Below are positions 6,671 to 43,825 of a stretch of 43,825 bases of DNA, in pieces (position 1 is the stretch's first letter; each line of letters begins with the position of its first letter). The position numbers were made by a program, and so were the translations under genes. Under the pieces are notes generated by a model, which was given only the letters and a program-made list of their open reading frames with translations, did not search any database and was not told the origin of the DNA. The stretch is from a virus (taxonomy: Duplodnaviria > Heunggongvirae > Uroviricota > Caudoviricetes). Location of the stretch: IMG/VR virus record IMGVR_UViG_2711768001_000012; one strand, 5' to 3'.

Positions 6671-7159
6671 ATGTTGGATGTATTTACTCCATTGTTGAAA
6701 CTTTTTGCTAACGAGCCACTCGAAATACTTATGTATACGATTATCATTTTTGGTCTCACTCTCTGGCTGATACCGAAAGAGTTTACTGTCGCATTCAATG
6801 CTTATACTGAAATACCTTGGCTCTTTCAGATTATCGTTTTTGCCTTTTCTTTCGTGGTCGCCATTTCCTTCTCAAGATTGCGAGCACATATTCAAAAGCA
6901 TTATTCATTACTACCAGAGCAACGAGTATTGCTTCGTTTATCTGAGAAAGAAATCGCTGTATTTAAAGATTTCCTTAAAACAGGAAATCTTATTATCACT
7001 TCTCCTTGCCGTAACCCGGTTATGAAAAAATTAGAACGGAAGGGCATCATTCAACATCAGAGTGATAGCGCAAACTGTTCTTATTATCTCGTCACCGAAA
7101 AATACTCCCATTTTATGAAGTTATTCTGGAACAGCAGGAGTAGACGTTTTAATCGTTAG
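6671..7159 (+). CDS. sieB: Superinfection exclusion protein B
   Basis: 162-aa product from ATG 6671 (MLDVFTPLLKLFANEPLEILMYTIIIFGLTLWLI...) with N-terminal hydrophobic segments; opposite strand to the leftward early operon, as in Rac. Confidence 0.8.
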   Translation: MLDVFTPLLKLFANEPLEILMYTIIIFGLTLWLIPKEFTVAFNAYTEIPWLFQIIVFAFSFVVAISFSRLRAHIQKHYSLLPEQRVLLRLSEKEIAVFKDFLKTGNLIITSPCRNPVMKKLERKGIIQHQSDSANCSYYLVTEKYSHFMKLFWNSRSRRFNR

Positions 7160-7311
7160 CTTACTGTGTGCTTCTCCAACCATCGGCGCGCACCAGTTTC
7201 GGTTTTAAATGTTTTGCTTTTGGTATACGTCATGGCAGTGAACGTTCCATCCTGGTTGGGGAACACGCCGCACACCAGGGATTCGTTGTTGCCGAGGTCG
7301 ATTTTTTGCAT
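7156..7311 (-). CDS. ydaF: YdaF-like small protein
   Basis: Hand-translated 51-aa ORF: MQKIDLGNNESLVCGVFPNQDGTFTAMTYTKSKTFKTETGARRWLEKHTVS; convergent with sieB and overlapping it by 4 nt. Confidence 0.55.
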   Translation of the reverse strand: MQKIDLGNNESLVCGVFPNQDGTFTAMTYTKSKTFKTETGARRWLEKHTVS

Positions 7312-7321
7312 TTTGCGAATC

Positions 7322-7456
7322 TCACATCTTGTTGCTGTGTATAGCGACTTCTGCCTGCCAGAGATCCCAGTCGTTGCTGCGTAAAGCCTGCACAGCCTGG
7401 TTGTAAGTGATACCGCAACAATCCATCAAATACTGAACTACTTCGTAATGCACCAT
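7322..7456 (-). CDS. ydaG: YdaG-like small protein
   Basis: 44-aa product from ATG 7456 (MVHYEVVQYLMDCCGITYNQAVQALRSNDWDLWQAEVAIHSNKM) preceded by GGGGAGAG. Confidence 0.6.
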   Translation of the reverse strand: MVHYEVVQYLMDCCGITYNQAVQALRSNDWDLWQAEVAIHSNKM

Positions 7457-7599
7457 CTTATCTCTCCCCTTAACGCCGGGTGGCGGAACTGAAACCTGCT
7501 GCACTGCAAAATCTGAACCCTGCCGTCATGTTCATACGCCTCGGGCTGGCTACTTAACCCCTGACCACTGCCTGGTAACTCGAAGTATTGCCCTGCGTT

Positions 7600-7690
7600 C
7601 TGTGGGGCGGGGTGGGTTGGTAGGTATATAATGTACTTTGTGTTCATTGATGTAAAGTACTATAAGTACATTTTGTGTGTAAAAAAATGA
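7600..7690 (-). promoter_or_regulatory. Candidate leftward early promoter/operator region with GTAC-core repeats
   Basis: Intergenic between racR-like 3' end and ydaG; perfect 7-bp inverted repeat GTACTTT (7633-7639) / AAAGTAC (7654-7660) and a third AAGTACA copy at about 7665-7671; TATATAAT and TTTACA-like hexamers on the minus strand. Confidence 0.3.
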
Positions 7691-7746
7691 GATGGGATAA
7701 AGTGAAGCACAAACCCGGAGGGGGACGCTACCGGATTTATGCTGGT

Positions 7747-8166
7747 TTAAGAGGCTTTTTGTTTTTTCTTTCGTGCTAGCTCTTCGTAAATTGCATTGTA
7801 CTTCTGTTTTTTCTCCTCAAGAGTTTTTAAAAGTTCATCTGTCTCACTGTCAGGGAGCTCGTCCAGAAGGTCAATGATGATTTTTTGTCTTGGATTTAAC
7901 TCCTGATAGAAACGTACCTGTCCACTTTCTTCTGTATCCTCTCCCAAAAGATAGGTTGGTGTTGTTCCAATGAGTGTTGCTAATTCCCTTAATTTCTCTC
8001 GGCGAGGAATTGTTTCGCCATTAAACCATTTGCTAACCGCTTTTGGTGTTAATTTCATTCGACGGGCAATTTCTGCCTGCCTTCCATGTTGTTCATAACC
8101 AGCGTTTTCACAGGCTAGCGCAAGCCTACTGGCGAACTCTTTACGCGCTTTATCTTCATGAACCAT
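7747..8166 (-). CDS. HTH (XRE/cI-like) prophage repressor, RacR-like position
   Basis: Helix-turn-helix segment QAEIARRMKLTPKAVSKWFNGETIPRREKLRELATLIGTTPTYLL; transcribed divergently from ydaS; no S24 peptidase motif seen; first ATG at 8166 (track start 8184 is a GTG), possibly leaderless. Confidence 0.7.
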   Translation of the reverse strand: MVHEDKARKEFASRLALACENAGYEQHGRQAEIARRMKLTPKAVSKWFNGETIPRREKLRELATLIGTTPTYLLGEDTEESGQVRFYQELNPRQKIIIDLLDELPDSETDELLKTLEEKKQKYNAIYEELARKKKQKAS

Positions 8167-8245
8167 AAGTTCAATGATATTCACTCTTGAATGTACTGTC
8201 AGTTCTGTTATAGCATGTACTCAAAGTTCACATTGTGAGGGTGAT
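8167..8245. promoter_or_regulatory. Divergent immunity promoter/operator region (repressor vs ydaS)
   Basis: 79-bp intergenic region; two ATGTACT copies (8191-8197 and 8215-8221), an ACTGTCAGT palindrome, and TTGAAT-17 bp-TATAGC promoter-like hexamers ahead of ydaS. Confidence 0.45.
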
Positions 8246-8500
8246 ATGAACCAGAAAACACTTGAAGATGTAATCAAAACTGTTCGCGTTTCTGTTGTGG
8301 CCGACGTTTGTGGTGTCAGCCAAAGAGCAATCTACAAATGGATGGATAACGGAAAATTGCCTCGCACAGAATATACCGGCGAAACAAATTACGCTGAAAA
8401 AATCGCTCATGCATCAAACGGATTATTTTCTGCTGATGTAATTTTAACTATTGGCAGAAATAAAACTACTACGAAAAAGCTGATGGGAGTTGATTCATGA
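8246..8500 (+). CDS. ydaS: Cro/cII-like HTH protein YdaS
   Basis: 84-aa product MNQKTLEDVIKTVRVSVVADVCGVSQRAIYKWMDNGKLPR... with HTH; GAGGGTG Shine-Dalgarno; first gene of the rightward operon. Confidence 0.75.
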   Translation: MNQKTLEDVIKTVRVSVVADVCGVSQRAIYKWMDNGKLPRTEYTGETNYAEKIAHASNGLFSADVILTIGRNKTTTKKLMGVDS

Positions 8501-8919
8501 AAATCAAGCATGAGCACATCGAGTCAGTGTTGTTAGCCCTGGCAGCCGAAAAAGGGCAGGCATGGGTAGCCAATGCCATTACTGAAGAATATCTGCGCCA
8601 GGGGGGCGGCGAATTGCCCCTGGTACCAGGCAAGGACTGGAATAATCAGCAGAATATCTATCACCGTTGGTTGAAAGGTGAAACGAAAACGCAAAGAGAA
8701 AAAATTCAGAAGCTGATCCCAGCAATTCTGGCAATCCTTCCGCGCGAGCTGCGTCACCGACTCTGCATCTTCGATACCCTGGAACGCCGTGCATTACTGG
8801 CGGCGCAGGAAGCGTTAAGTACGGCAATTGATGCGCATGATGATGCAGTCCAAGCCGTTTACCGGAAAGCGCATTTCAGCGGCGGCGGGTCTTCCGACGA
8901 TTCTGTCATTGTTCATTAA
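8497..8919 (+). CDS. ydaT: YdaT-like protein
   Basis: 140-aa ORF whose ATG overlaps the ydaS stop (ATGA), indicating translational coupling. Confidence 0.7.
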   Translation: MKIKHEHIESVLLALAAEKGQAWVANAITEEYLRQGGGELPLVPGKDWNNQQNIYHRWLKGETKTQREKIQKLIPAILAILPRELRHRLCIFDTLERRALLAAQEALSTAIDAHDDAVQAVYRKAHFSGGGSSDDSVIVH

Positions 8920-9795: not shown

Positions 9796-10228
9796 ATGAA
9801 AAATATTGCGACAGGCGACGTTCTTGAACGTATCCGCAGACTGGCCCCGTCACATGTAACCGCGCCATTCAAGACGGTAGCGGAGTGGCGCGAGTGGCAA
9901 CTTTCCGAAGGCCAGAAACGTTGTGAGGAGATCAACCGTCAGAATCGTCAGTTGCGGGTGGAAAAAATTCTGAATCGCTCTGGCATCCAGCCATTGCACC
10001 GCAAATGCTCGTTTTCGAATTACCAGGTGCAGAACGAAGCGCAGCGATACGCGTTGAGTCAGGCGAAATCCATCGCTGATGAACTGATGACCGGGTGTAC
10101 AAATTTTGCGTTCAGCGGAAAACCTGGTACCGGGAAGAACCACTTAGCGGCAGCTATCGGGAATCGCCTGCTGAAAGACGGTCAGACAGTGATTGTGGTT
10201 ACCGTGGCTGATGTTATGAGTGCCCTGC
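9796..10228 (+). CDS. DnaC-like helicase loader ATPase (YdaV-like), 3' end lost in N-run
   Basis: Walker A motif FSGKPGTGKNHLAAAIG; the ORF runs into the N-run at 10229 and the track ORF fuses it artificially with the next gene. Confidence 0.75.
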
Positions 10229-10269
10229 NNNNNNNNNNNNNNNNNNNNNNNNNNNNNNNNNNNNNNNNN
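10229..10269. other. Run of 41 N (gap or masked sequence)
   Basis: Ambiguous bases; too short to hold the missing ~100 codons of the DnaC-like gene. Confidence 0.99.
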
Positions 10270-10293
10270 AATTTTTACCGGGAGGAAATTTTT

Positions 10294-11055
10294 ATGGAGA
10301 CTGTTTTTGACGCACTGAAAGCAATGGGAAAAGCCACATCCATAGAACTTGCTGCGCGACTTGATATCAGTCGTGAAGAAGTGCTGAACGAACTATGGGA
10401 ACTGAAAAAAGCTGGTTTCGTTGATAAAAGCGCGTACACCTGGCGTGTGGCTGATAACAACGTTCAGCAGGAACAGCCAATGCAGGCAGAACTGCCGGAA
10501 GAAACCACCACGGCAACTGTAGTGAAAATCTCAGAGTGCGATTTAACCGCGACGATTGAACAACGCGGACCACAAACGGCGGATGAACTGGCTACGCTGT
10601 TCGGTACAACATCCCGCAAAGTTGCTTCAACGCTGGCAATGGCAATCAGCAAAGGACGCCTGATTCGCGTAAACCAGAACAGTAAATTTCGTTACTGCAT
10701 GCCGGGCGATAATTTACCAGCAGAGCCGAAAGCTGCATCGGTAGCGGAAACTGATGGTAAAGCCTTTCCTCAGCCAGCCGGTGTTGCGTTACCAGTACAG
10801 GAAGCGGCAACACAGGAAGATATTAAAACAGAAACTGTGGCGGACATTGTGCAGTCGCTGCCATCGTTTACTGAAACGCAAGCGGATGACCTAGTTTTAC
10901 CATCGCTGCATATGGCAAACCGCGAACTGCGTCGGGCGAAAAATCATGTCCAGAAGTGGGAGCGAGTCTGCGCCGCGCTGCGGGAGCTGAACAAGCACCG
11001 GGATATTGTCCGACAGATTGTCGATTCCTCCAGTCGTATTGTGTCGGAAAAGTGA
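10294..11055 (+). CDS. Hypothetical protein with N-terminal winged-helix-like region
   Basis: ATG 10294 preceded by GGGAGG; [43 protein letters not shown] resembles a wHTH; acidic/Ala-rich middle. Confidence 0.5.
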
Positions 11056-11070
11056 TTGCCGGAGGCGCTT

Positions 11071-11487
11071 ATGGCAAAAGTTTTTACACAGGAAGAGCGT
11101 GAAAAAATTAAGGAGCAGGTTGTTGAGTTGGTACGCCAGAGTGGGCGCGAGACGTTAAGGCAACTGGAGGCCAAGACAGGTGCGACAAGATATCTGATGA
11201 GCATTCTTGCCAGAGAGTTGGTTGCCAGTGGCGATGTATACAACTCTGGCTATGGGTTATTCCCGTCTGAACAGGCTCGTAAGGATTGGAAAAACGCCCG
11301 CAAAAAACTATCCAGGGCAAAGGTGAAAAAAACGGTTGTGGTTGATCCTGACCTTATCTGGTCATTACCAGACGGAGAAATACGCCGCTATGACAGGCGT
11401 CAGAACATAATCTGTCGCGAGTGCCGGAAGAGTGAAGTTATGAAACGTGTACTGGCATTTTATCAAGGAAATCTTCGGTATTTATAG
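11071..11487 (+). CDS. Hypothetical protein
   Basis: ATG 11071 preceded by GGAGG (11061-11065); 138 aa, basic C-terminal half with CxxC (ICRECRK). Confidence 0.5.
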   Translation: MAKVFTQEEREKIKEQVVELVRQSGRETLRQLEAKTGATRYLMSILARELVASGDVYNSGYGLFPSEQARKDWKNARKKLSRAKVKKTVVVDPDLIWSLPDGEIRRYDRRQNIICRECRKSEVMKRVLAFYQGNLRYL

Positions 11488-11625
11488 ACGTTACTAGATC
11501 AAAGAGCATTAGTTCATATGTAAATTGACATTTTTCTGGCACAGGGGAGAGCTAGCGTGGTTGTCCGCTTTGTGCCAATAGCGGACATTGCTGGCTCATG
11601 GTATGTTAGTTTAAGGAGGCAGGTT

Positions 11626-12648
11626 ATGCCCTGTATTTCGCTGTGGTATAATAGTTGCGCAATTGATACAAGGGAGCGTTACATCGTGAAAATTGTTTTC
11701 GAGGTTAATGGAAAGAAAGTTCCACTAAAATCTTTAAAATACATAAGCAAAAAAGATCAACTCGAAGTAATGAAAAACTGGTTCTTTGAAAACTTTGAAG
11801 ATCCGGCAAATGCTTGTCCGTATGAAAGTAGAGAAGGTGGCTATGCTTACATATATGGCGGGCCGTATGATGCGAGCGAAGAACTACAATCCATCTTCGG
11901 TCAATATGTTAAATCTGAGTATATTGAGGAATTAGTAGATGAATTACAAACACAATGTTTTGACTGGTCTGGAAACTCAAATAATATAGATGATTGGTAC
12001 GATGATGATATCTACGACGCTGTAACGTCTTCCGGTAATCCGTATTTAAAATTCATTGATAATATCGATAAAATAAAAAAACTTGCAAAAGATAAAACTG
12101 AACAACAGCAAAAAAACCACTTGCTTAGTTTGCTCTACACGAATGTTATTACAGCTTTGGAAACGCTTTATGTTGAGCTATTCATTAATTCTATAGAGAA
12201 AGATGATGTCTACATAGCCAATTGTATAGAAAAAGGTAAGACTGAATTTAAAGTAAGCAAAGATATTGCTGCGTTGCCTTTCAAGGGTGAACCCATCGAG
12301 AAAATTAGGGGAGAGCTAATCAGGTCAATCAAGGAACACTTGATCAGTGCAAGCTGGCATAGCACTAAAAAGGTAATCGACCGCTATGAAGCTACATTCG
12401 ATATAAAAGTACAAAAAGACTGTCCGATAGAAGCTATTGAATTGGCAACCCTCAATCGAAATCACTTAGTGCATCGTGGTGGAAAGGATAAAGAAGGGAA
12501 CCTCGTAGTGATTACAGACCAGGATCTTGAAACGCTGATTGAAAATGCATCGAACCTGGCAATTATGCTCTACAACAGTTTAAATGTAGCAACGAATAAA
12601 ACCACCATTTTGCAACCAGATGACAAACCGTTCATTCATGAATTTTAA
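11626..12648 (+). CDS. Hypothetical protein with HEPN-like Rx4H motif (cargo gene A)
   Basis: ATG 11626 preceded by AAGGAGG (11613-11619); alternative GTG start at 11686; low GC; RNHLVH motif near the C-terminus (ATLNRNHLVHRGG). Confidence 0.6.
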   Translation: MPCISLWYNSCAIDTRERYIVKIVFEVNGKKVPLKSLKYISKKDQLEVMKNWFFENFEDPANACPYESREGGYAYIYGGPYDASEELQSIFGQYVKSEYIEELVDELQTQCFDWSGNSNNIDDWYDDDIYDAVTSSGNPYLKFIDNIDKIKKLAKDKTEQQQKNHLLSLLYTNVITALETLYVELFINSIEKDDVYIANCIEKGKTEFKVSKDIAALPFKGEPIEKIRGELIRSIKEHLISASWHSTKKVIDRYEATFDIKVQKDCPIEAIELATLNRNHLVHRGGKDKEGNLVVITDQDLETLIENASNLAIMLYNSLNVATNKTTILQPDDKPFIHEF

Positions 12649-12663
12649 TAGCGCAGGTCATAC

Positions 12664-13665
12664 ATGGATATTCGCACACGAAAGACAAAATTTTTAGAGT
12701 CGTTAGATTCAACTGAAGTGATACGCAAAGCAGTAAGTCTCGCTATAGATTGCATTATTGATAATCATAATAGTAATGAAGATACCCCCTTAGTTATTAC
12801 CAGCTATGATGATCTCTGTAGAATCCAGGTGCTAAATTATGTACAGGAGTTTTGCGAAGCTGCATTCCCTGATATGGATGAATATTACTTTAGTCCTAAC
12901 ATACTTCGCATCAACGGCAAGACTAGTGAAGAAGCTTGTATTAACTTAATTAAACTCTTAAGAAGTACAAAAGGCATGCTATTCTGGTCCGATGCCCCAT
13001 CGTGGTTCGCTAGCCTCCCCGACGGATTATTCCATGTTGTTAACATTGATCAAAAAATCGTTACTCGCGGCCTTAATAAGAAAAACTCTAAGCCGACAAT
13101 AATCAATAAAGATTACAGTGTAGATACACTACTATCAGAGCTATTTTTGAATGGCGCACACATGGAGCAACCCAACGTACACAACGTTTCTGAGGGAAAC
13201 ATGAAGTTCTATGATGAATGCCATGCTGGATTAATCAGACCAATACCCGCTCCAATAGGCGCGTCATACGATGAAGAGATCACAATTAATTCTCCAGATT
13301 GGCAAAAGCTCGCGTGTGTAGCTTTACGCCGCTATCAGTCGAAGGAATGTCATGACGGAATGCAATGGGATACAACCGATCATGGTTGGACTGATGTAAT
13401 CGCGTATCCATTCGTCGAAGAAATACAATCAATGGATAATAGTGGTTATCGACAATGTTTAGTTGGGCTGGTCACAATAAACAATTCAAATGCAAATTCT
13501 CCGTACCTATCTACCGTTTGGATACATCCATTTTATCGCAGGAGAGGGTTATTAAGTAAGTTATGGCCAAAATTACAAGAGTTATATGGAAGTAACTTCG
13601 AAATTGAGCGACCTAATGAAAATATGAAAGCATTTCTGAAAAGTGCGAAACACGCAGATTACTAA
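12664..13665 (+). CDS. Hypothetical protein with tentative C-terminal GNAT-like motif (cargo gene B)
   Basis: 333-aa ORF 15 bp downstream of gene A, same strand, low GC; VWIHPFYRRRGLLSKLWPKL resembles GNAT motif A. Confidence 0.55.
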   Translation: MDIRTRKTKFLESLDSTEVIRKAVSLAIDCIIDNHNSNEDTPLVITSYDDLCRIQVLNYVQEFCEAAFPDMDEYYFSPNILRINGKTSEEACINLIKLLRSTKGMLFWSDAPSWFASLPDGLFHVVNIDQKIVTRGLNKKNSKPTIINKDYSVDTLLSELFLNGAHMEQPNVHNVSEGNMKFYDECHAGLIRPIPAPIGASYDEEITINSPDWQKLACVALRRYQSKECHDGMQWDTTDHGWTDVIAYPFVEEIQSMDNSGYRQCLVGLVTINNSNANSPYLSTVWIHPFYRRRGLLSKLWPKLQELYGSNFEIERPNENMKAFLKSAKHADY

Positions 13666-14220
13666 TTTATGAATCAGTCTGTGGAGTTAGGGTTGGTGTG
13701 AACAAGTAGGGTAAGAGCCTCAACGTGATGCTATGCCGACCTGCTCCCTGAGAATTCACACAGAAGGCTGCTAGCAATGTCTGCAGATCGCTCAAAGCGG
13801 ACTAAAATGTTGGCTTGTTTCTGACTTAGAGCATTTAAGGAAGTGCTGGTGGTGACTGGTTGTTGTGTTCCATTTCTACAGAATAAAATCACAGAAACTA
13901 TACCCAATAGTTGTATTGAATCACTGACGAGACAGCCTCATATTTATCAGGACTGGTGTGCGTCTAATACAGGGGGTTGTCGTGCTGGTTCTCAAATGTG
14001 CGCTGGCTATTGCGGCTGTAATGGCAATTTATTGTCTTGCTGTTGTTCTTATGGAGCGGCTTTCTGATTGATTACATACTGGCTAGAAAAAAGGTGTTAC
14101 CTTGGTTTATCTTTGTCCGGCAAGGTGCGCTCATTAATCTTAAGTAAATTTATTGCTCAAGTATTCAGATTACTTCTTATGGTTGAAGTCTCCTGTCAAT
14201 GTAGAACCAATATATTTACA

Positions 14221-14256
14221 AAAATGAGACCCGTCGGGGATAGCCCTGCCGGGTCT
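14221..14256 (-). terminator. Candidate rho-independent terminator for the YeaR-like gene
   Basis: Inverted repeat AGACCCG (14227-14233) / CGGGTCT (14250-14256); on the minus strand it is followed by a U-run (rc of TACAAAAATG). Confidence 0.4.
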
Positions 14257-14285
14257 GACTGTTAAAGCATTTTTAATATGATCAT

Positions 14286-14624
14286 CTATTTTTTGGTGCT
14301 ATAGACTTTTTCGCCCGAAAAGTCTGGAGCGACCCAAAAGTTAATATTAAACTGAGCATCATCGCTTAGTTCAACACGGTGCCAGTATTGTGGTGGGCTT
14401 GTTGCAAAAGCGCCAGCATTAATGACTACTTTTATCTCCGGTTCAGTAGCATTCTCATCAGTAAAACCATAATATGTTACAGTGCCTTCCATTACGCACA
14501 ACTGCCCAAAAACACCTGCTGCTGTATTATGATGTGTTAATAACGCTGAAGGTACGTTCTCTTTTGTGAAGAACGGAGTTGAGCGTTTGATTACCCAATC
14601 TTTAGGAATTCTCTTGTGTGTCAT
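14286..14624 (-). CDS. DUF1971/YeaR-like protein
   Basis: 112-aa product from ATG 14624 with GGAGGAGGTGG Shine-Dalgarno; resembles E. coli YeaR as recalled from memory (HHNTAAGVFGQLCV...GTVTYYGF...PPQYWHRVE...FNINFWVAP); opposite strand to neighbours. Confidence 0.6.
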   Translation of the reverse strand: MTHKRIPKDWVIKRSTPFFTKENVPSALLTHHNTAAGVFGQLCVMEGTVTYYGFTDENATEPEIKVVINAGAFATSPPQYWHRVELSDDAQFNINFWVAPDFSGEKVYSTKK

Positions 14625-15437
14625 AACCACCTCCTCCAAAACATGCATTAAAAATGCATCTTTTGGAGGGTTATGTCAAGCTGTTATGAAACACATAATT
14701 GATATGTTGATTAGAGGAGAAGATAGAATAAATATGGTTGTTTTTCGTATAACTATTTGTTTTACTTTTAGTTTATGCATTCTGTGTGTTAGGAATAAGT
14801 TATTAAAGTTTAATCAAAAAATCTCGATGTAGTCCACATAGATTACTGTTACTGAACCTTATTGTGTGTATTAGTTGTGTTCTGAAATTTCAGCTTAATT
14901 ATTTATGATGTATTTTTTAACGATAAATATTTTCCCAGGATACCTTTACTGTGTATATAAATAAATTATATACGCATAAATAATGTAAAGGCGTCCTTTT
15001 AGATATATCTTATCAAATGTTAATGACTTGAGTGGGAAATATGATTCCAGCAACTTATCATGTGGCTACTTTATAAAAATAATGCCCATATAAAACAACA
15101 AGCGAAAAGGATTACGGATAAAAAAGGAGCGAGATGTGCGAACTTGTTATTTTCCATGTTTAACCACCTTAAATAATTGATGATGACGGGATGATTGCAT
15201 CTGTAATGCTTTTATTGAAATGTTATGATAAAAAAGAACTTTTGCATAACATTAAAATGTAATTTATCTAATCGTTTTTAATAATAAGTGTCGTATTTCT
15301 ATCCTTGTACCAGCTATTTGATATGTAGTGTTTGTTCATGCTATGTGGGGCTTTACACCATAGCCAGTTTATTTATACTTTATTCGTCAGCCTGAACAAC
15401 TGGCATCTGCTGCGCTGCGCCATCGAGAGATTGAGAA

Positions 15438-17320: not shown

Positions 17321-17910
17321 GGCTGGTTTATTGTATGCCAAATGATTATTAAAAAGGTTGTGTTAATAACAAGATCCGAAATAATATGCCTGCATATTTT
17401 TATCTTGCTTATATTCTGCATATTGTGCATAGCAGGCTCATCCCTGCAATCAAAACTGTATGATGAGTATTTTTTGTTTTCCTTTTTTCCAGTCATCTGA
17501 TGATGACCTGCTTCTTTTTAATCCGGATCGACATCAGTTTTTTAAGATAATTCCTGCGAGTTATATGCATAAATGCCACAAACTCCGCATTTTATGTGGT
17601 TGGGAGTTGCCGGGCGCGCAGTGAGTTTGCTAAGAAAACTCCTGCATGGTGAATCCCCCTGTGCGGTGGGGTGATACCATTAACCTTTTCTGTCGCCGAC
17701 AGGTATCACGAACATTTTGTTCACCGGGAGGCACCCGGCACCATGCACTTCAATAGATTCTCTCCACATTATGGATATTCTTTCAGAATATCCCACGCAG
17801 ACTTTGTGTAAATGTTAACAAATGTGCGTTTTATTTGATCTGATTCGCTGTTTGAGCGTCCAAAACAACGGTATATATAATCCTTTACTATATGACATAT
17901 GTGAGGAAAA

Positions 17911-18339
17911 ATGGGTTTTCGTAGCGCATCAATTCTTACGTTGATTATTAGTGGGATTATTATCGGGTGCACTGATGCTGTATCGACAAATTATCATGAC
18001 CGTACATCATATTACTCCGATAAAGCAATAGAGACACAGTATGTGAGTTCATCTGAACGTACTTCTGATGTTAGTGAGGATATCCGTCTGTATGCCCATC
18101 AAATCAAGAGCGCCATCGAAAAACAGTTCGGGGATGCGAGTAAGTATTCAGGAAAAGAGTGTACACTGAGAATGCATATGGCCCCGAATGGCCTTCTACT
18201 GGAGGTTAAAAGAGAAAGTGGAGACCTCGATTTATGTCGTGAAGCGATGAATGCGATAAAGAATGCTGATATACCTGCCCCCCCTTCGCCGGAAGTATAT
18301 AAAGTATTTCAAAATGGGGTGCTGGATTTTAAACCCTGA
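17911..18339 (+). CDS. Lipoprotein with TolA C-terminal (domain III)-like domain
   Basis: Signal peptide plus lipobox IIGC; GAGGA Shine-Dalgarno; C-terminal YAHQIKSAIEKQFGDASKYSGKECTLRMHMAPNGLLLEVKRESGDLDLCREAMNAIKNADIPAPPSPEVYKVFQNGVLDFKP closely parallels the E. coli TolA C-terminus as recalled. Confidence 0.75.
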   Translation: MGFRSASILTLIISGIIIGCTDAVSTNYHDRTSYYSDKAIETQYVSSSERTSDVSEDIRLYAHQIKSAIEKQFGDASKYSGKECTLRMHMAPNGLLLEVKRESGDLDLCREAMNAIKNADIPAPPSPEVYKVFQNGVLDFKP

Positions 18340-18489: not shown

Positions 18490-18885
18490 GTGGGATTAAA
18501 GAAAATCGTTATGTTGACTTTTTGGGTCGGTTTTGTTGCGGGATGCACACCTTTACACCCTTCAGATTGCCACAAAACTACTGCTACAGGTAGTTGCAGT
18601 TCAGGACGCTGGGATGATCAGGATGAATGGGGGGCGCAAGCGCGGGGAATCAGAGCTGCAATTAATGCCAAACTTGATGAGCCGCATAACTGGAAAGGGA
18701 AAAAATGCAGGTTGCATATGGAATTCTCTCAGGATGGCACGGCGTTAAAAATATCTACCAGTAACGGTGATAAAGCCTATTGCGAAGCGATAAAGTCCGC
18801 AGCTCATAAAGCCAAATTTCCGGCCTTCAACAATCCGGAAGTCTACAGAGATTTTCAGAAATCTGGCTTTGACATGCGAGGTTAG
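18490..18885 (+). CDS. Second lipoprotein with TolA domain III-like C-terminus (paralog)
   Basis: GTG start with GAGGAG Shine-Dalgarno; signal peptide plus lipobox VAGC; C-terminus KKCRLHMEFSQDGTALKISTSNGDKAYCEAIKSAAHKAKFPAFNNPEVYRDFQKSGFDM aligns with the first lipoprotein and with TolA domain III. Confidence 0.7.
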   Translation: MGLKKIVMLTFWVGFVAGCTPLHPSDCHKTTATGSCSSGRWDDQDEWGAQARGIRAAINAKLDEPHNWKGKKCRLHMEFSQDGTALKISTSNGDKAYCEAIKSAAHKAKFPAFNNPEVYRDFQKSGFDMRG

Positions 18886-19352: not shown

Positions 19353-19853
19353 TGCCTCCATCATTACGAAAAGTCGTTGCTGCTGCTATTGGTGGCGGAG
19401 CAATTGCTATAGCATCAGTGTTAATCACTGGCCCAAGTGGTAACGATGGTCTGGAAGGTGTCAGCTACATACCATACAAAGATATTGTTGGTGTATGGAC
19501 TGTATGTCACGGGCATACAGGAAANNNNNNNNNNNNNNNNNNNNNNNNNNNNNNNNNNNNNNNNNNNNNNNNNNNNNNNNNNNNNNNNNNNNNNNNNNNN
19601 NNNNNNNNNNNNNNNNNNNNNNNNNNNNNNNNNNNNNNNNNNNNNNNNNNNNNNNNNNNNNNNNNNNNNNNNNNNNNNNNNNNNNNNNNNNNNNNNNNNN
19701 NNNNNNNNNNNNNNNNNNNNNNNNNNNNNNNNNNNNNNNNNNNNNNNNNNNNNNNNNNNNNNNNNNNNNNNNNNNNNNNNNNNNNNGCAATGGAAAGGTC
19801 TCATGACTCGTCGTGAGATTGAGCGTGAAATCTGTTTGTGGGGTCAGCAATGA
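19352..19853 (+). CDS. SAR endolysin (phage 21 R-like lysozyme), middle replaced by N-run
   Basis: N-terminal SAR segment [27 protein letters not shown]; the C-terminus [21 protein letters not shown] appears in a different frame after the N-run, so the N length is not frame-true. Confidence 0.8.
19525..19786. other. Run of 262 N inside the endolysin gene
   Basis: Ambiguous bases; flanking endolysin segments are in different frames. Confidence 0.99.
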
Positions 19854-22046: not shown

Positions 22047-22835
22047 ATGAGCGAGAAATTAAAGATAGTCTATCGCCCATTACAAGAATTGTCACCGTAT
22101 GCGCACAACGCCAGGACGCACAGTACTGAGCAGGTGGCACAACTGGTAGAAAGTATTAAGCAATTCGGCTGGACTAATCCGGTGCTGATTGACGAAAAGG
22201 GCGAAATTATTGCGGGTCACGGTCGTGTTATGGCGGCTGAAATGCTCAAAATGGATTCTGTTCCGGTCATTGTTCTGTCTGGCCTGACGGATGAGCAGAA
22301 AAAGGCGTACCGCCTGGCAGATAATCGCCTGCCGATGAATGCTGGCTGGGATGAAGATCTGTTGCGGATGGAGCTGTCGGACCTAATCAATGCTGATTTT
22401 GATGTCTCCCTGACAGGCTTCATCCCGGCAGAAATTGATGAACTGTTGACGGATGTTTTGCCCGGTACAGGAAATGAGGAGGAGCCGTATACGACGAAAA
22501 TTGATACGCCTGTTTATGAGCCGTCAGGCGGTAAACCGGATATCAGTGAACTGTACGACGATACGAAAACTCAGGAGCTGATCAGCCGGATACGTTCGGC
22601 GTCCCTTGATCCTGATATTGAGAAATTCCTCCTGTGTGCAGCAGAACGTCACACGGTGTTTAATTTCAGCAGAATTGCGGACTATTACGCTCATGCCCCC
22701 GCTGAAATTCAGTGCCTTTTCGAGGAGTCGGCGCTGGTGATCATTGATTATCAGCAGGCTATTGAAAATGGATTTGTCCGAATGACGCAGCGCATGGTGG
22801 AGATCATGCATGGCGGGGAGGAGGAATATGCGTGA
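22047..22835 (+). CDS. ParB-like nuclease domain protein
   Basis: N-terminal ParB/Srx-like domain (KIVYRPLQELSPYAHNARTH...IIAGHGRVMAA); located just upstream of the terminase genes. Confidence 0.65.
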   Translation: MSEKLKIVYRPLQELSPYAHNARTHSTEQVAQLVESIKQFGWTNPVLIDEKGEIIAGHGRVMAAEMLKMDSVPVIVLSGLTDEQKKAYRLADNRLPMNAGWDEDLLRMELSDLINADFDVSLTGFIPAEIDELLTDVLPGTGNEEEPYTTKIDTPVYEPSGGKPDISELYDDTKTQELISRIRSASLDPDIEKFLLCAAERHTVFNFSRIADYYAHAPAEIQCLFEESALVIIDYQQAIENGFVRMTQRMVEIMHGGEEEYA

Positions 22836-23760
22836 TGATTTTTGCGCCTTTATTCTGACTCACGGGCGACCGGACAAAGTTCTGACTTACCGGACGTTGC
22901 GTCGTGCTGGCTATACCGGGAAAATTTTTATCGTTGTTGATGATGAAGATAAGACACGGCATCAGTACATGGCTGAATTTGGTGAACAGGTGCTGGTATT
23001 TTCCAAAGCCGATATTGCTAGTCGTTTTGACGAAGCCGATAATTTTAGTGACCGCCGCTCAATTTTTTACGCCCGTAATGCCTGTTTCGACCAGGCAAAA
23101 CTGGTCGGGTGTAAATACTTCATTCAGCTCGATGATGATTATCACGAGTTCCAGTTTCGGGTGGATCGCAACTATGACCAGGCCTATTTCCCGATAAGGA
23201 AACTGGATGAGATCCTTTCTGAAATGCTTGCGTACTACGAATCAATACCTGCTCTTTCCATCGCTATGTCGCAGGGCGGGGATTTTCTTGGTGACAATGG
23301 CGGCCATGCTTCGTGGGTGAAACGCAAGGCAATGAACAGCTTTATCTGTTCGGTTGATCGACCGTTCTCATTCATGGGGCGCATTAACGAGGATGTGAAT
23401 ACGTACACGAATCTCGGTCGCTGTGGTGAATTGTTTATGACGATCGGTGCTGTCCAGTTAGGGCAGAAACAGACGCAGAAAAACAGCGGCGGAATGACCG
23501 AGCTGTATCTGGATTCCGGAACCTACGTTAAAAGTTTTTACTCCGTCATGTATGCGCCGTCGTGCGTAAAAATCTCACTTATGGGTGCCAGTCATAAACG
23601 CATTCACCATCAGGTCACCTGGAACAACGCTGCAGTAAAAATCCTTCACGAAAAATACAGGAAGAAGACACCCTGCATATCAATGGGGGTGACAAATGAT
23701 TCCGTATTCGAAAGTCGAGTCTCTGGCAGCGTGCCGGATGACTGCACAACAAATCGCTGA
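22828..23760 (+). CDS. Hypothetical protein, possible GT-A-like glycosyltransferase fold
   Basis: ATG 22828 preceded by GGGAGGAGGA; weak motif evidence only (FILTHGRPD at N-terminus, QLDDDYHEF DxD-like). Confidence 0.4.
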   Translation: MRDDFCAFILTHGRPDKVLTYRTLRRAGYTGKIFIVVDDEDKTRHQYMAEFGEQVLVFSKADIASRFDEADNFSDRRSIFYARNACFDQAKLVGCKYFIQLDDDYHEFQFRVDRNYDQAYFPIRKLDEILSEMLAYYESIPALSIAMSQGGDFLGDNGGHASWVKRKAMNSFICSVDRPFSFMGRINEDVNTYTNLGRCGELFMTIGAVQLGQKQTQKNSGGMTELYLDSGTYVKSFYSVMYAPSCVKISLMGASHKRIHHQVTWNNAAVKILHEKYRKKTPCISMGVTNDSVFESRVSGSVPDDCTTNR

Positions 23761-40099: not shown

Positions 40100-40448
40100 N
40101 NNNNNNNNNNNNNNNNNNNNNNNNNNNNNNNNNNNNNNNNNNNNNNNNNNNNNNNNNNNNNNNNNNNNNNNNNNNNNNNNNNNNNNNNNNNNNNNNNNNN
40201 NNNNNNNNNNNNNNNNNNNNNNNNNNNNNNNNNNNNNNNNNNNNNNNNNNNNNNNNNNNNNNNNNNNNNNNNNNNNNNNNNNNNNNNNNNNNNNNNNNNN
40301 NNNNNNNNNNNNNNNNNNNNNNNNNNNNNNNNNNNNNNNNNNNNNNNNNNNNNNNNNNNNNNNNNNNNNNNNNNNNNNNNNNNNNNNNNNNNNNNNNNNN
40401 NNNNNNNNNNNNNNNNNNNNNNNNNNNNNNNNNNNNNNNNNNNNNNNN
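40100..40448. other. Run of 349 N covering the I/J junction
   Basis: Ambiguous bases hide the 3' end of I and the 5' end of J. Confidence 0.99.

Positions 40449-43825
<3,377 letters not shown>

Follow-up and report, generated by a model that had tools for sequence, protein, structure and literature searches.

The HEPN–GNAT Gene Pair of a Rac-Like Escherichia coli Prophage Is the Anti-Phage System DS-33: Architecture, Distribution and Genomic Setting

Identity, Location and Composition of the Cassette

The window analysed here is a stretch of 43,825 nt of viral DNA (Caudoviricetes; IMG/VR record IMGVR_UViG_2711768001_000012), and it corresponds to a Rac-like lambdoid prophage of Escherichia coli. 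The matching region is identical in strain FORC_081, where the copy is flanked by ttcA/intR on one side and by nin/Q-lysis-trkG-terminase genes on the other. Behind the replication module lies a cassette of two co-directional genes, referred to as gene A and gene B, whose coordinates are given in Table 1. An earlier note, made from the sequence alone, had placed the two genes 15 bp apart, and this spacing was confirmed, with the stop of gene A at 12648 and gene B at 12664-13665.

The pair is DS-33, a validated anti-phage system of DefensePredictor (Science 2026, PMC13092281), which consists of WP_014639476.1 and WP_000354965.1 and bears the lab code 'GNAT'. Protein A of the window is identical to DS-33A (Table S8 of PMC13092281) at 320/320 residues and protein B to DS-33B (WP_000354965.1) at 332/333 residues, the sole difference being Pro289 in the window versus Leu289 in the tested clone. 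The DS-33 clone (6922-8901) is made up of 963 nt, 15 nt and 1002 nt and represents the same operon; the window copy differs in carrying the family-invariant P289 and resides in the Rac-like prophage. The cassette is already described and experimentally validated, and it is not a new discovery. The earlier note recognized no characterised family in either protein, which has to be corrected, since the two genes form DS-33 and a 2013 paper (PMC3710099) already listed the architecture of A. A full-text literature search with the RefSeq accessions gave no match, the DS-33 listing being placed in the supplementary tables of PMC13092281.

The cassette (11560-13710) has a GC content of 0.384, with 0.361 for gene A, 0.391 for gene B and about 0.35 at third codon positions, while the replication module, the nin/Q module and the whole window have 0.485, 0.491 and 0.465, respectively. 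The genes are thus AT-rich compared with the flanking replication and nin genes (0.384 versus about 0.49), as had been noticed from the sequence. The cassette is free of masked bases (N-runs). Six N-runs of 41-369 nt are located at 10229-10269, 19525-19786, 40100-40448, 41410-41607, 41879-42120 and 43095-43463, and the apparent falls in GC at 19-20.5 kb and 39.5-43.5 kb, partly an artefact of N being counted in the denominator, were not used as comparators. Nucleotide homology between E. coli and Aeromonas caviae extends from about 11628 to about 13710 and delimits a unit of promoter, A and B, which is also present on two plasmids (L091 and L092). The unit was detected in prophages, IncF plasmids and a relaxase element across E. 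coli, Klebsiella, Citrobacter, Serratia, Providencia and Aeromonas, in agreement with the proposal of a horizontally acquired moron.

Table 1. Features of the DS-33 cassette in the window, its neighbours and the contents of the corresponding slot in other genomes.
Feature	Position	Strand	Evidence or remark
DUF977 gene, last replication-module gene before the cassette	11056-11487		
Mobile cassette, made up of the promoter, genes A and B with their 15-nt spacer, and a 3′ flank of about 45 nt	11628-13710	+	Nucleotide homology to Aeromonas caviae relaxase element L084
Putative extended -10 promoter of the cassette, TGGTATAAT	11644-11652	+	Conservation
Shine-Dalgarno sequence of gene A, AAGGGAG	11670-11676	+	9 nt 5′ of GTG 11686; AAGGAG in Aeromonas and Yersinia homologues
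Gene A, DS-33A (WP_014639476.1), 320 aa, predicted HEPN RNase, defence effector	11686-12648	+	320/320 identity to DS-33A of PMC13092281 Table S8; same coding sequence in RefSeq
N-terminal HEPN/RES-NTD1 domain (PF18870), residues ~1-97, presumed sensor/regulatory module	11686-11976	+	Pfam, conserved residues
RiboL-PSP-type HEPN domain, residues ~140-308	12103-12609	+	
Rx4H catalytic motif R258-N-H-L-V-H263	12457-12474	+	Conservation; published R258A mutant
Disordered acidic C-terminal tail of A, ending ...DDKPFIHEF, terminal Phe	12610-12645	+	Predicted local distance difference test (pLDDT) <50 at residues 310-315
A-B spacer TAGCGCAGGTCATAC, 15 nt, after the TAA stop of A	12649-12663	+	Length fixed, sequence nearly fixed in all paired loci
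Gene B, DS-33B-type protein (WP_000354966.1), 333 aa	12664-13665	+	Annotated at a locus with cassette DNA 100% identical to the window
N-terminal alpha/beta domain specific to the B family, residues 1-175	12664-13188	+	Homology searches
GNAT-fold domain of B, residues 176-333	13189-13662	+	
W-I-H-P-F-Y-R-R-R-G-L-L of B, beta4/alpha3, acyl-CoA pyrophosphate-loop region (motif A)	13519-13554	+	P289 at 13528-13530
DUF1971 gene on the far side of the cassette	14286-14648	-	
Slot content: DUF5677 gene			E. coli KE47
Slot content: AbiH-family gene and hypothetical gene			E. coli B7A
Slot content: SMEK-domain gene and methyltransferase			E. coli UTME-9
Slot content: ISApl1-mcr-1 insertion			E. coli HS30-1 (L105)

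Start and Putative Promoter of Gene A

The start of gene A had been placed at ATG 11626, behind an AAGGAGG sequence, which was not upheld; the true start is GTG 11686, giving a protein of 320 aa. The homologues of A are 310-320 aa in length and none covers the extra 20 N-terminal residues of the longer form. The GTG start and its Shine-Dalgarno sequence are conserved in the Serratia, Aeromonas and Yersinia loci, while the ATG and AAGGAGG are missing in Aeromonas, and the 320-aa form is used both by RefSeq and by the published clone. The 340-aa form from ATG 11626, as found in phrog_17908, was rejected on conservation.

The sequence TGGTATAAT had been read as a -10-like element upstream of gene A as it was then drawn, a description that fails because TGGTATAAT at 11644-11652 lies 3′ of ATG 11626 and so inside that open reading frame (ORF). 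Counterparts were found in Serratia (TGGTACAAT) and Aeromonas (TGATACAAT) at the same distance from the GTG, and the conserved pattern is TG-n-TA(T/C)AAT, about 35 nt 5′ of GTG 11686. TGGTATAAT is therefore listed as a putative extended -10 promoter belonging to the cassette itself. A simple sigma-70 hexamer scan missed it on account of its poor -35, and a generic sigma-70 and terminator scan was uninformative, with counts equal to the shuffled expectation.

Domains and Motifs of Gene A

The product of gene A is assigned a HEPN/RES-NTD1 domain followed by a RiboL-PSP-type HEPN domain, and it has the alpha-helical bundle fold of HEPN proteins. The family alignment comprised 54 homologues with 26-87% identity, of which 37 match PF18870 (best E 1e-6) and 25 match PF18735 (RiboL-PSP-HEPN) at E ≤ 1e-3 (best 7e-11). 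For the window protein, the PF18870 score is 22.2 bits (E 1.9e-4; cut-off 27.4 bits), and no Pfam match to PF18735 was obtained at E ≤ 1. Residues R258, H263, R264, E159 and W224-H225 in the HEPN part and P45, G58-G59-P60, F71 and W94 in the N-domain are invariant in all 54 homologues. The reading of RNHLVH as an Rx4-6H signature of HEPN RNases is confirmed by the invariance of R258 and H263.

Neither A nor B had a significant match in PADLOC or NCBIfam, and A did not match the PADLOC models of PD-T4-2, PD-T4-5, PD-T7-3, ApeA and AbiJ/U/V at E ≤ 0.001. The PHROGs matches of both proteins are to families of 'unknown function' only, and a search of the A family profile against PDB sequences gave chance matches only. 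The best remote HHblits match reported for DS-33A is PD-T4-2_B (RiboL-PSP-HEPN), with a probability of 96.1 and a coverage of 0.55 (PMC13092281 Table S8).

Anantharaman et al. 2013 (PMC3710099) had already listed fusions of HEPN/RES-NTD1 with HEPN or RES. In addition, the N-domain of A is fused to PIN_8 in other taxa and heads a GIGHNNPPE-motif module with a hydrophobic C-terminus in many alphaproteobacteria; proteins sharing only the PF18870 domain with A reach 28.7-29.4 bits. This range of partners fits a portable sensor or regulatory head placed on interchangeable effectors. The GIGHNNPPE family is widespread (L054-L081, e.g., L062:7923-8822), with heads 40-50% identical to that of A and a body made up of a linker, the motif G-I-G-H-N-N-P-P-E and a hydrophobic C-terminal segment, often ending in ...LPF. 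No Pfam domain covers this body, which may be an unexplored type of effector on the HEPN/RES-NTD1 head.

The terminal Phe of the acidic tail is present in 83/111 full-length members of the A family, mostly as ...E/D-x-E/D-F, and in 15 of the 22 listed alphaproteobacterial N-domain proteins. The conservation of this tail is presented here as a new point, and the tail may have a role of its own in A. The link between tail and N-domain was checked for the HEPN and GIGHNNPPE architectures only. For RES-fused NTD1 proteins, the search with the N-domain profile gave only short proteins or fragments (≤150 aa), and a plasmid tblastn search yielded further HEPN members only. Some distant A homologues end in ...FDAESPF, ...FDADLPF or ...DLPF and resemble the tip of SSB, the protein that binds single-stranded DNA.

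Domains and Motifs of Gene B

The product of gene B combines a novel family-specific N-domain with a GNAT fold. The AlphaFold2 model has a pLDDT of 90.6. PF00583 (GNAT) aligns with residues 264-311 at 19.9 bits (E 9e-4; cut-off 20.7 bits), and some relatives of B pass the cut-off, such as P0198 with 24.2 bits. Residues ~180-333 are homologous to standalone proteins of ~160 aa (E 1e-37 to 1e-20, exhaustive profile search), while residues 1-175 were found only in full-length B relatives or their fragments in a scan of 1.84 billion representatives. The N-domain had no match in Pfam, PADLOC or NCBIfam, and no PDB or BFVD structural match ranked above the GNAT matches.

In GNAT proteins, the beta4/alpha3 junction forms the acyl-CoA pyrophosphate loop. 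In B, motif A reads R292-R-R-G295-L-L297, that is R-x-x-G-x-L versus the canonical Q/R-x-x-G-x-G/A; across the B family the Arg is invariant, the Gly is mostly kept, and the position of the last G/A is occupied by Leu or another residue. The stretch VWIHPFYRRRGLL, on which a GNAT domain had been proposed tentatively, is confirmed in B, with R292 invariant and H288 conserved in at least 90%. The proposal holds as far as the fold is concerned, and the second Gly/Ala of motif A is indeed absent. The GNAT fold of B is certain, while its acyltransferase activity is not. B and the small standalone GNATs have in common the signature W-[ILV]-H-P-F-x-R, in which P289 and R292 are invariant; P289 was counted in 63/63 B-family proteins and is invariant in the standalone proteins as well.

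The standalone GNAT-like proteins of ~160 aa (P0193-P0218; L097:4929-5411) carry the W-I-H-P-F-x-R signature and belong to phrog_36762; one of their genes lies between a DUF3987 primase and a terminase in a phage contig. Two proteins of ~500 aa (P0234 and P0242) each contain two degenerate copies of the B-type GNAT-like domain.

Published Phage Assays

The published plaque assays are given as -log10 efficiency of plating (EOP), from a screen and two replicates (Table S7 of PMC13092281). Wild-type DS-33 gave 3.0/3.78/2.60 on T7, 3.48/3.30/2.40 on T3, 2.30/4.0/1.98 on Bas67, 4.70/5.0/5.90 on Bas26 and 0.77/0.08 on T5, amounting to a protection of 2-6 logs against T7, T3, Bas67 and Bas26 (PMC13092281). 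Deletion of the GNAT gene left 4.78/4.30 on T7, 3.30/3.30 on T3, 4.0/3.30 on Bas67, 5.0/4.90 on Bas26 and 1.73/0.55 on T5, while the R258A mutant (-0.30 to 0.78) and the construct lacking the HEPN gene (-0.48 to 0.54) both stayed at about 0 on all five phages (PMC13092281). In this assay, defence needs gene A and the Rx4H arginine R258, not gene B. The idea that the cassette is phage-defence cargo is thereby borne out (PMC13092281). The DefensePredictor log-odds are 9.45 for A and 1.08 for B (PMC13092281 Table S8).

Leu289 was observed only in the tested DS-33B; the window, the other paired loci that were examined and the 63 B-family proteins all have Pro at this position. With this change (P289L) at an invariant position of the tested protein, the published GNAT-deletion result is possibly a comparison of a null with a hypomorph.

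Distribution and Evolution of the Two Genes

Prophages with the A-B operon were found in 209 out of 5426 complete E. coli genomes. Plasmids also carry it, of the IncF type in E. coli and Klebsiella and of the IncFIB type in Citrobacter (one plasmid), and further copies are in Serratia grimesii, the Aeromonas caviae relaxase element and one metagenomic contig. Among 80 A-family loci, B is downstream in only three, the three closest, and no other neighbour is conserved. B occurs solo or with other neighbours in Shewanella, Marinomonas (beside Abi_2), Neptunicella, Idiomarina and a Serratia integrative and conjugative element (ICE), and one B lies in a defence island with TerB_N, BrxC-like, Mrr_cat and HEPN_Toprim_N genes. 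Co-occurrence had been proposed as a check of the pair, and the outcome is mixed: the pair recurs in prophages, plasmids and ICE-like contexts, but it is not obligate, both families being mostly solo.

In a neighbour-joining tree without support values, the paired B form one crown clade and the solo B are placed on deeper branches. Two apparently solo B of the crown clade (L098 and L099) keep the last 40-60 nt of A upstream, and therefore A was deleted secondarily there. The comparison of sequences shows both families to be mostly solo, the A-B operon having arisen once in the crown clade and then spread as a unit. This speaks for a recent union of two independent single-gene modules. The paired loci diverge in step, with identities for A/B of 100/100, 98.7/95.8, 98.1/95.2, 86.2/80.0 and 78.0/74.0%, and the 15-nt spacer is nearly unchanged down to the last of these pairs.

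Either gene can be lost from the operon. E. coli SF-173 has IS1A inserted in B with A intact and identical, AHB12 has A cut short by IS1 with B intact, and a Providencia plasmid has A frameshifted with B intact. These single-gene knock-outs in both ways argue against a toxin-antitoxin relation in either direction. A pair of the HepT/MntA kind (type VII), with A as toxin and B as essential enzymatic antitoxin, would account for the HEPN protein adjoining a modifying enzyme and for the natural losses of A outnumbering those of B, as a cost of the gene would predict. Nevertheless, the GNAT-deletion strain could be built, plated normally and showed full defence, A persists in SF-173 without a functional B, most A homologues have no partner at all, and B is not an MNT nucleotidyltransferase, so that this explanation is largely refuted and very improbable.

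A further explanation is that B is separate cargo serving the mobile element, as an acyltransferase for counter-defence or host takeover or as a further defence gene of another phage range, and that it only shares the promoter of A. Its GNAT domain is that of the standalone ~160-aa family, with the one member between a primase and a terminase; B stands on its own in defence islands and in the transfer region of an ICE; the B with the A remnant upstream is directly 3′ of a plasmid-type ssb and 5′ of ddrB-ParB, typical of a plasmid leading region; and its log-odds are far below those of A (1.08 versus 9.45). On the other hand, no phenotype is known for B and its contexts are heterogeneous. We give this explanation a little less than an even chance, and it is compatible with, and partly contained in, the interpretation preferred below.

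Several arrangements at these loci are of interest on their own. In Aeromonas caviae (L084-L086), the cassette is ~1.2 kb from a divergent pair of SIR2 (PF02146) and cREC_REC (PF20274) genes, likely a neighbouring defence system. At L099, a gene at 200-535 ending in ...DFDDDIPF, an SSB C-terminal tip, is upstream of the B with deleted A, and a 1017-aa ddrB-ParB is downstream, a layout that resembles a plasmid leading region. In E. coli MB56 (L095), gene A lies exactly between two ISSen4 copies, the first separating it from the promoter region and the second from B, a layout that could mobilise A alone as a composite transposon.

Insertion Slot Downstream of DUF977

The 3′ end of DUF977 with ~100 nt downstream was detected in 2498 of the 5426 E. 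coli genomes, and the contents of the slot behind it vary (Table 1). One SMEK-domain protein makes up the validated system DS-27 (PMC13092281). The slot between the replication genes and the Q region had been regarded as a site of defence cargo, which these varied contents directly support, and the position downstream of DUF977 is a variable defence-cargo hotspot. In E. coli HS30-1 (NZ_CP029492.1, 2369052-2377257), the Rac-type prophage is mostly deleted, and an ISApl1-flanked composite transposon with mcr-1 (colistin resistance) follows directly after the DUF977 remnant, where the window has the cassette.

Other Features of the Window

Directly 3′ of the cassette is a second low-GC stretch (13711-15437; GC 0.367), which includes the minus-strand gene of Table 1, of the DUF1971/TehB family; about 600 nt (13666-14285) carry no called gene. 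This stretch is probably another moron. A ParB_N gene followed by an overlapping TET-associated glycosyltransferase (TAGT, PF20691, E 4e-34) occupies 22047-23760, just 5′ of the terminase. The ParB_N gene also matches the PADLOC type II methyltransferase model (E 1.5e-38), and the two genes form a possible DNA-hypermodification or anti-restriction module. Two small RNAs (sRNAs) were detected with Rfam: the RalA antitoxin sRNA of the RalR/RalA type I toxin-antitoxin system at 1557-1735 (225 bits), and STnc100 at 17614-17800 (86.6 bits), 5′ of genes with a TolA C-terminal domain at 17911-18339 and 18490-18885. ORFs across the N-runs are artefacts or chimeras because N codons never yield stops; examples are a minus-strand ORF of 548 aa (41306-42952) and a 419-aa DnaC-like/DUF1627 fusion (9796-11055).

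Proposed Mechanism and Significance

We consider it quite probable that the cassette is DS-33 acting as a moron with its own transcription, placed in the variable slot downstream of DUF977 of a Rac-like prophage, with B standing outside the core mechanism. By analogy with HepS (PMC13043305), DARNA/PD-T7-3 and aRES, the lysogen would produce A constitutively, in the form of a silent HEPN dimer or oligomer, whose composite Rx4H site the N-domain, possibly together with the acidic Phe-ended tail, would hold inactive until a cue from the phage is perceived. Activated A would then cut RNA, most likely tRNA anticodon loops or mRNA, as do HepS, DARNA and ApeA, leading to a stop of translation and abortive infection. 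A would thus correspond to aRES, in which a RES NADase effector is joined to the same N-terminal domain, but with HEPN as its own effector. B would be an independently evolved, acyl-CoA-dependent cargo gene, recently linked to A and at most tuning it.

Several points weigh against this interpretation. No RNase activity, RNA target, trigger or abortive phenotype has been reported for DS-33A, and the main text of PMC13092281 holds no discussion of DS-33. The window A falls below the Pfam cut-off for PF18870 and lacks a direct PF18735 match, so its domain assignment relies on family transitivity and the predicted structure, and the evidence for the promoter is one of conservation alone. With regard to B, deletion of the GNAT gene raised the protection against T7 by 1-1.7 logs in both replicates (PMC13092281 data); B could dampen A, or the gain could be a polar or expression effect. 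The apparent dispensability of the GNAT gene may reflect a B already impaired by its Leu289. In addition, co-divergence with a fixed spacer through ~25% protein divergence hints at some functional coupling.

The last points bear on the alternative that B is a true regulatory partner, an acyltransferase damping or gating the HEPN RNase, with possible acylation targets in A, in its RNA or aminoacyl-tRNA substrate or in the phage trigger, and that the GNAT-deletion result under-reports this through the P289L allele. The gains on deletion (T7 from 3.78 to 4.78 and from 2.60 to 4.30, Bas67 from 1.98 to 3.30, and T5), the invariance of P289, which is Leu in the tested clone, throughout the B family and the small standalone GNATs, and the parallel divergence of A and B across prophage, plasmid and ICE-like contexts with an unchanged spacer length would all suit such a role, and AMPylation of HepT is a precedent for covalent control of a HEPN toxin. 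However, in most taxa the homologues of A work and are maintained with no B, B is likewise maintained with no A (in the basal solo loci and where A was deleted secondarily), and the EOP shifts are ~1 log in two replicates, with expression effects possible. A regulatory role of B is kept as an unlikely but live option because of the modest gain in protection on its deletion and the long co-divergence of the two genes. It is similarly doubtful, though conceivable, that the consensus B of the window (P289) is an active acyltransferase which gates or re-targets the HEPN RNase while, in parallel, the acidic Phe tail and HEPN/RES-NTD1 act as an autoinhibitory latch or trigger sensor common to DS-33A, aRES and other N-domain proteins.

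Our preferred interpretation remains A as the defence effector with B outside the core. The new points of this analysis are the P289L caveat on the tested DS-33B, the conserved C-terminal tail of A and the DUF977-adjacent defence hotspot. Carriers of the cassette include the extraintestinal and avian pathogenic E. coli (ExPEC/APEC) reference strains S88, IHE3034 and APEC O1 and the type strain ATCC 11775. Because the cassette is common and, in the published data, blocks T7-like phages by 3-4 logs, it is relevant to phage therapy and host-range prediction.

Comparison with Known Systems

TacT/AtaT/ItaT and AcrVA5 are GNATs. B is like them in having a GNAT fold on a mobile element, but it differs in its extra 175-aa N-domain, in having no ribbon-helix-helix antitoxin neighbour, in the R-x-x-G-x-L form of motif A and in having no known toxicity or anti-defence phenotype. 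HepT/MntA is similar to A-B in that a HEPN RNase stands beside a potential modifying enzyme, and the HEPN core is structurally similar. However, the partner is MNT in one and GNAT in the other, the partner of A is dispensable, and A is not toxic without B; the partner that type VII systems need to keep the HEPN toxin harmless is thus not needed by A.

The PD-T4-2_B/PF18735 family, DARNA (PD-T7-3) and ApeA are HEPN effectors of validated E. coli systems, and the relatives of A match PF18735, while these systems have another N-terminal domain and another partner gene than DS-33. HepS of the Gifsy-1 prophage is, like A, a single HEPN protein in the post-replication accessory slot of a lambdoid prophage, and it is a solo HEPN abortive-infection protein that is constitutive, inactive by default, Rx4-6H dependent and an anticodon nuclease (PMC13043305). 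HepS is <250 aa, lacks the PF18870 N-domain and senses a J tail-tip peptide (PMC13043305). A is not a member of the HepS group, defined as standalone HEPN proteins of <250 aa homologous to STM14_3211, having 320 aa with an additional N-domain and no significant sequence match to a solved structure.

The aRES proteins (bioRxiv 10.64898/2026.01.28.702374), compared here by domain definition only, are like A standalone defence proteins with an N-terminal PF18870 domain and a C-terminal enzymatic effector. They are located in defence islands, and their defence is accompanied by growth arrest (bioRxiv 10.64898/2026.01.28.702374). Their effector is a RES NADase making ADP-ribose (ADPR)-1''-phosphate rather than a HEPN RNase, and they have no GNAT neighbour. 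A is not a member of aRES, as it has no RES domain and its C-terminal domain is HEPN, but the architecture of the two is analogous.

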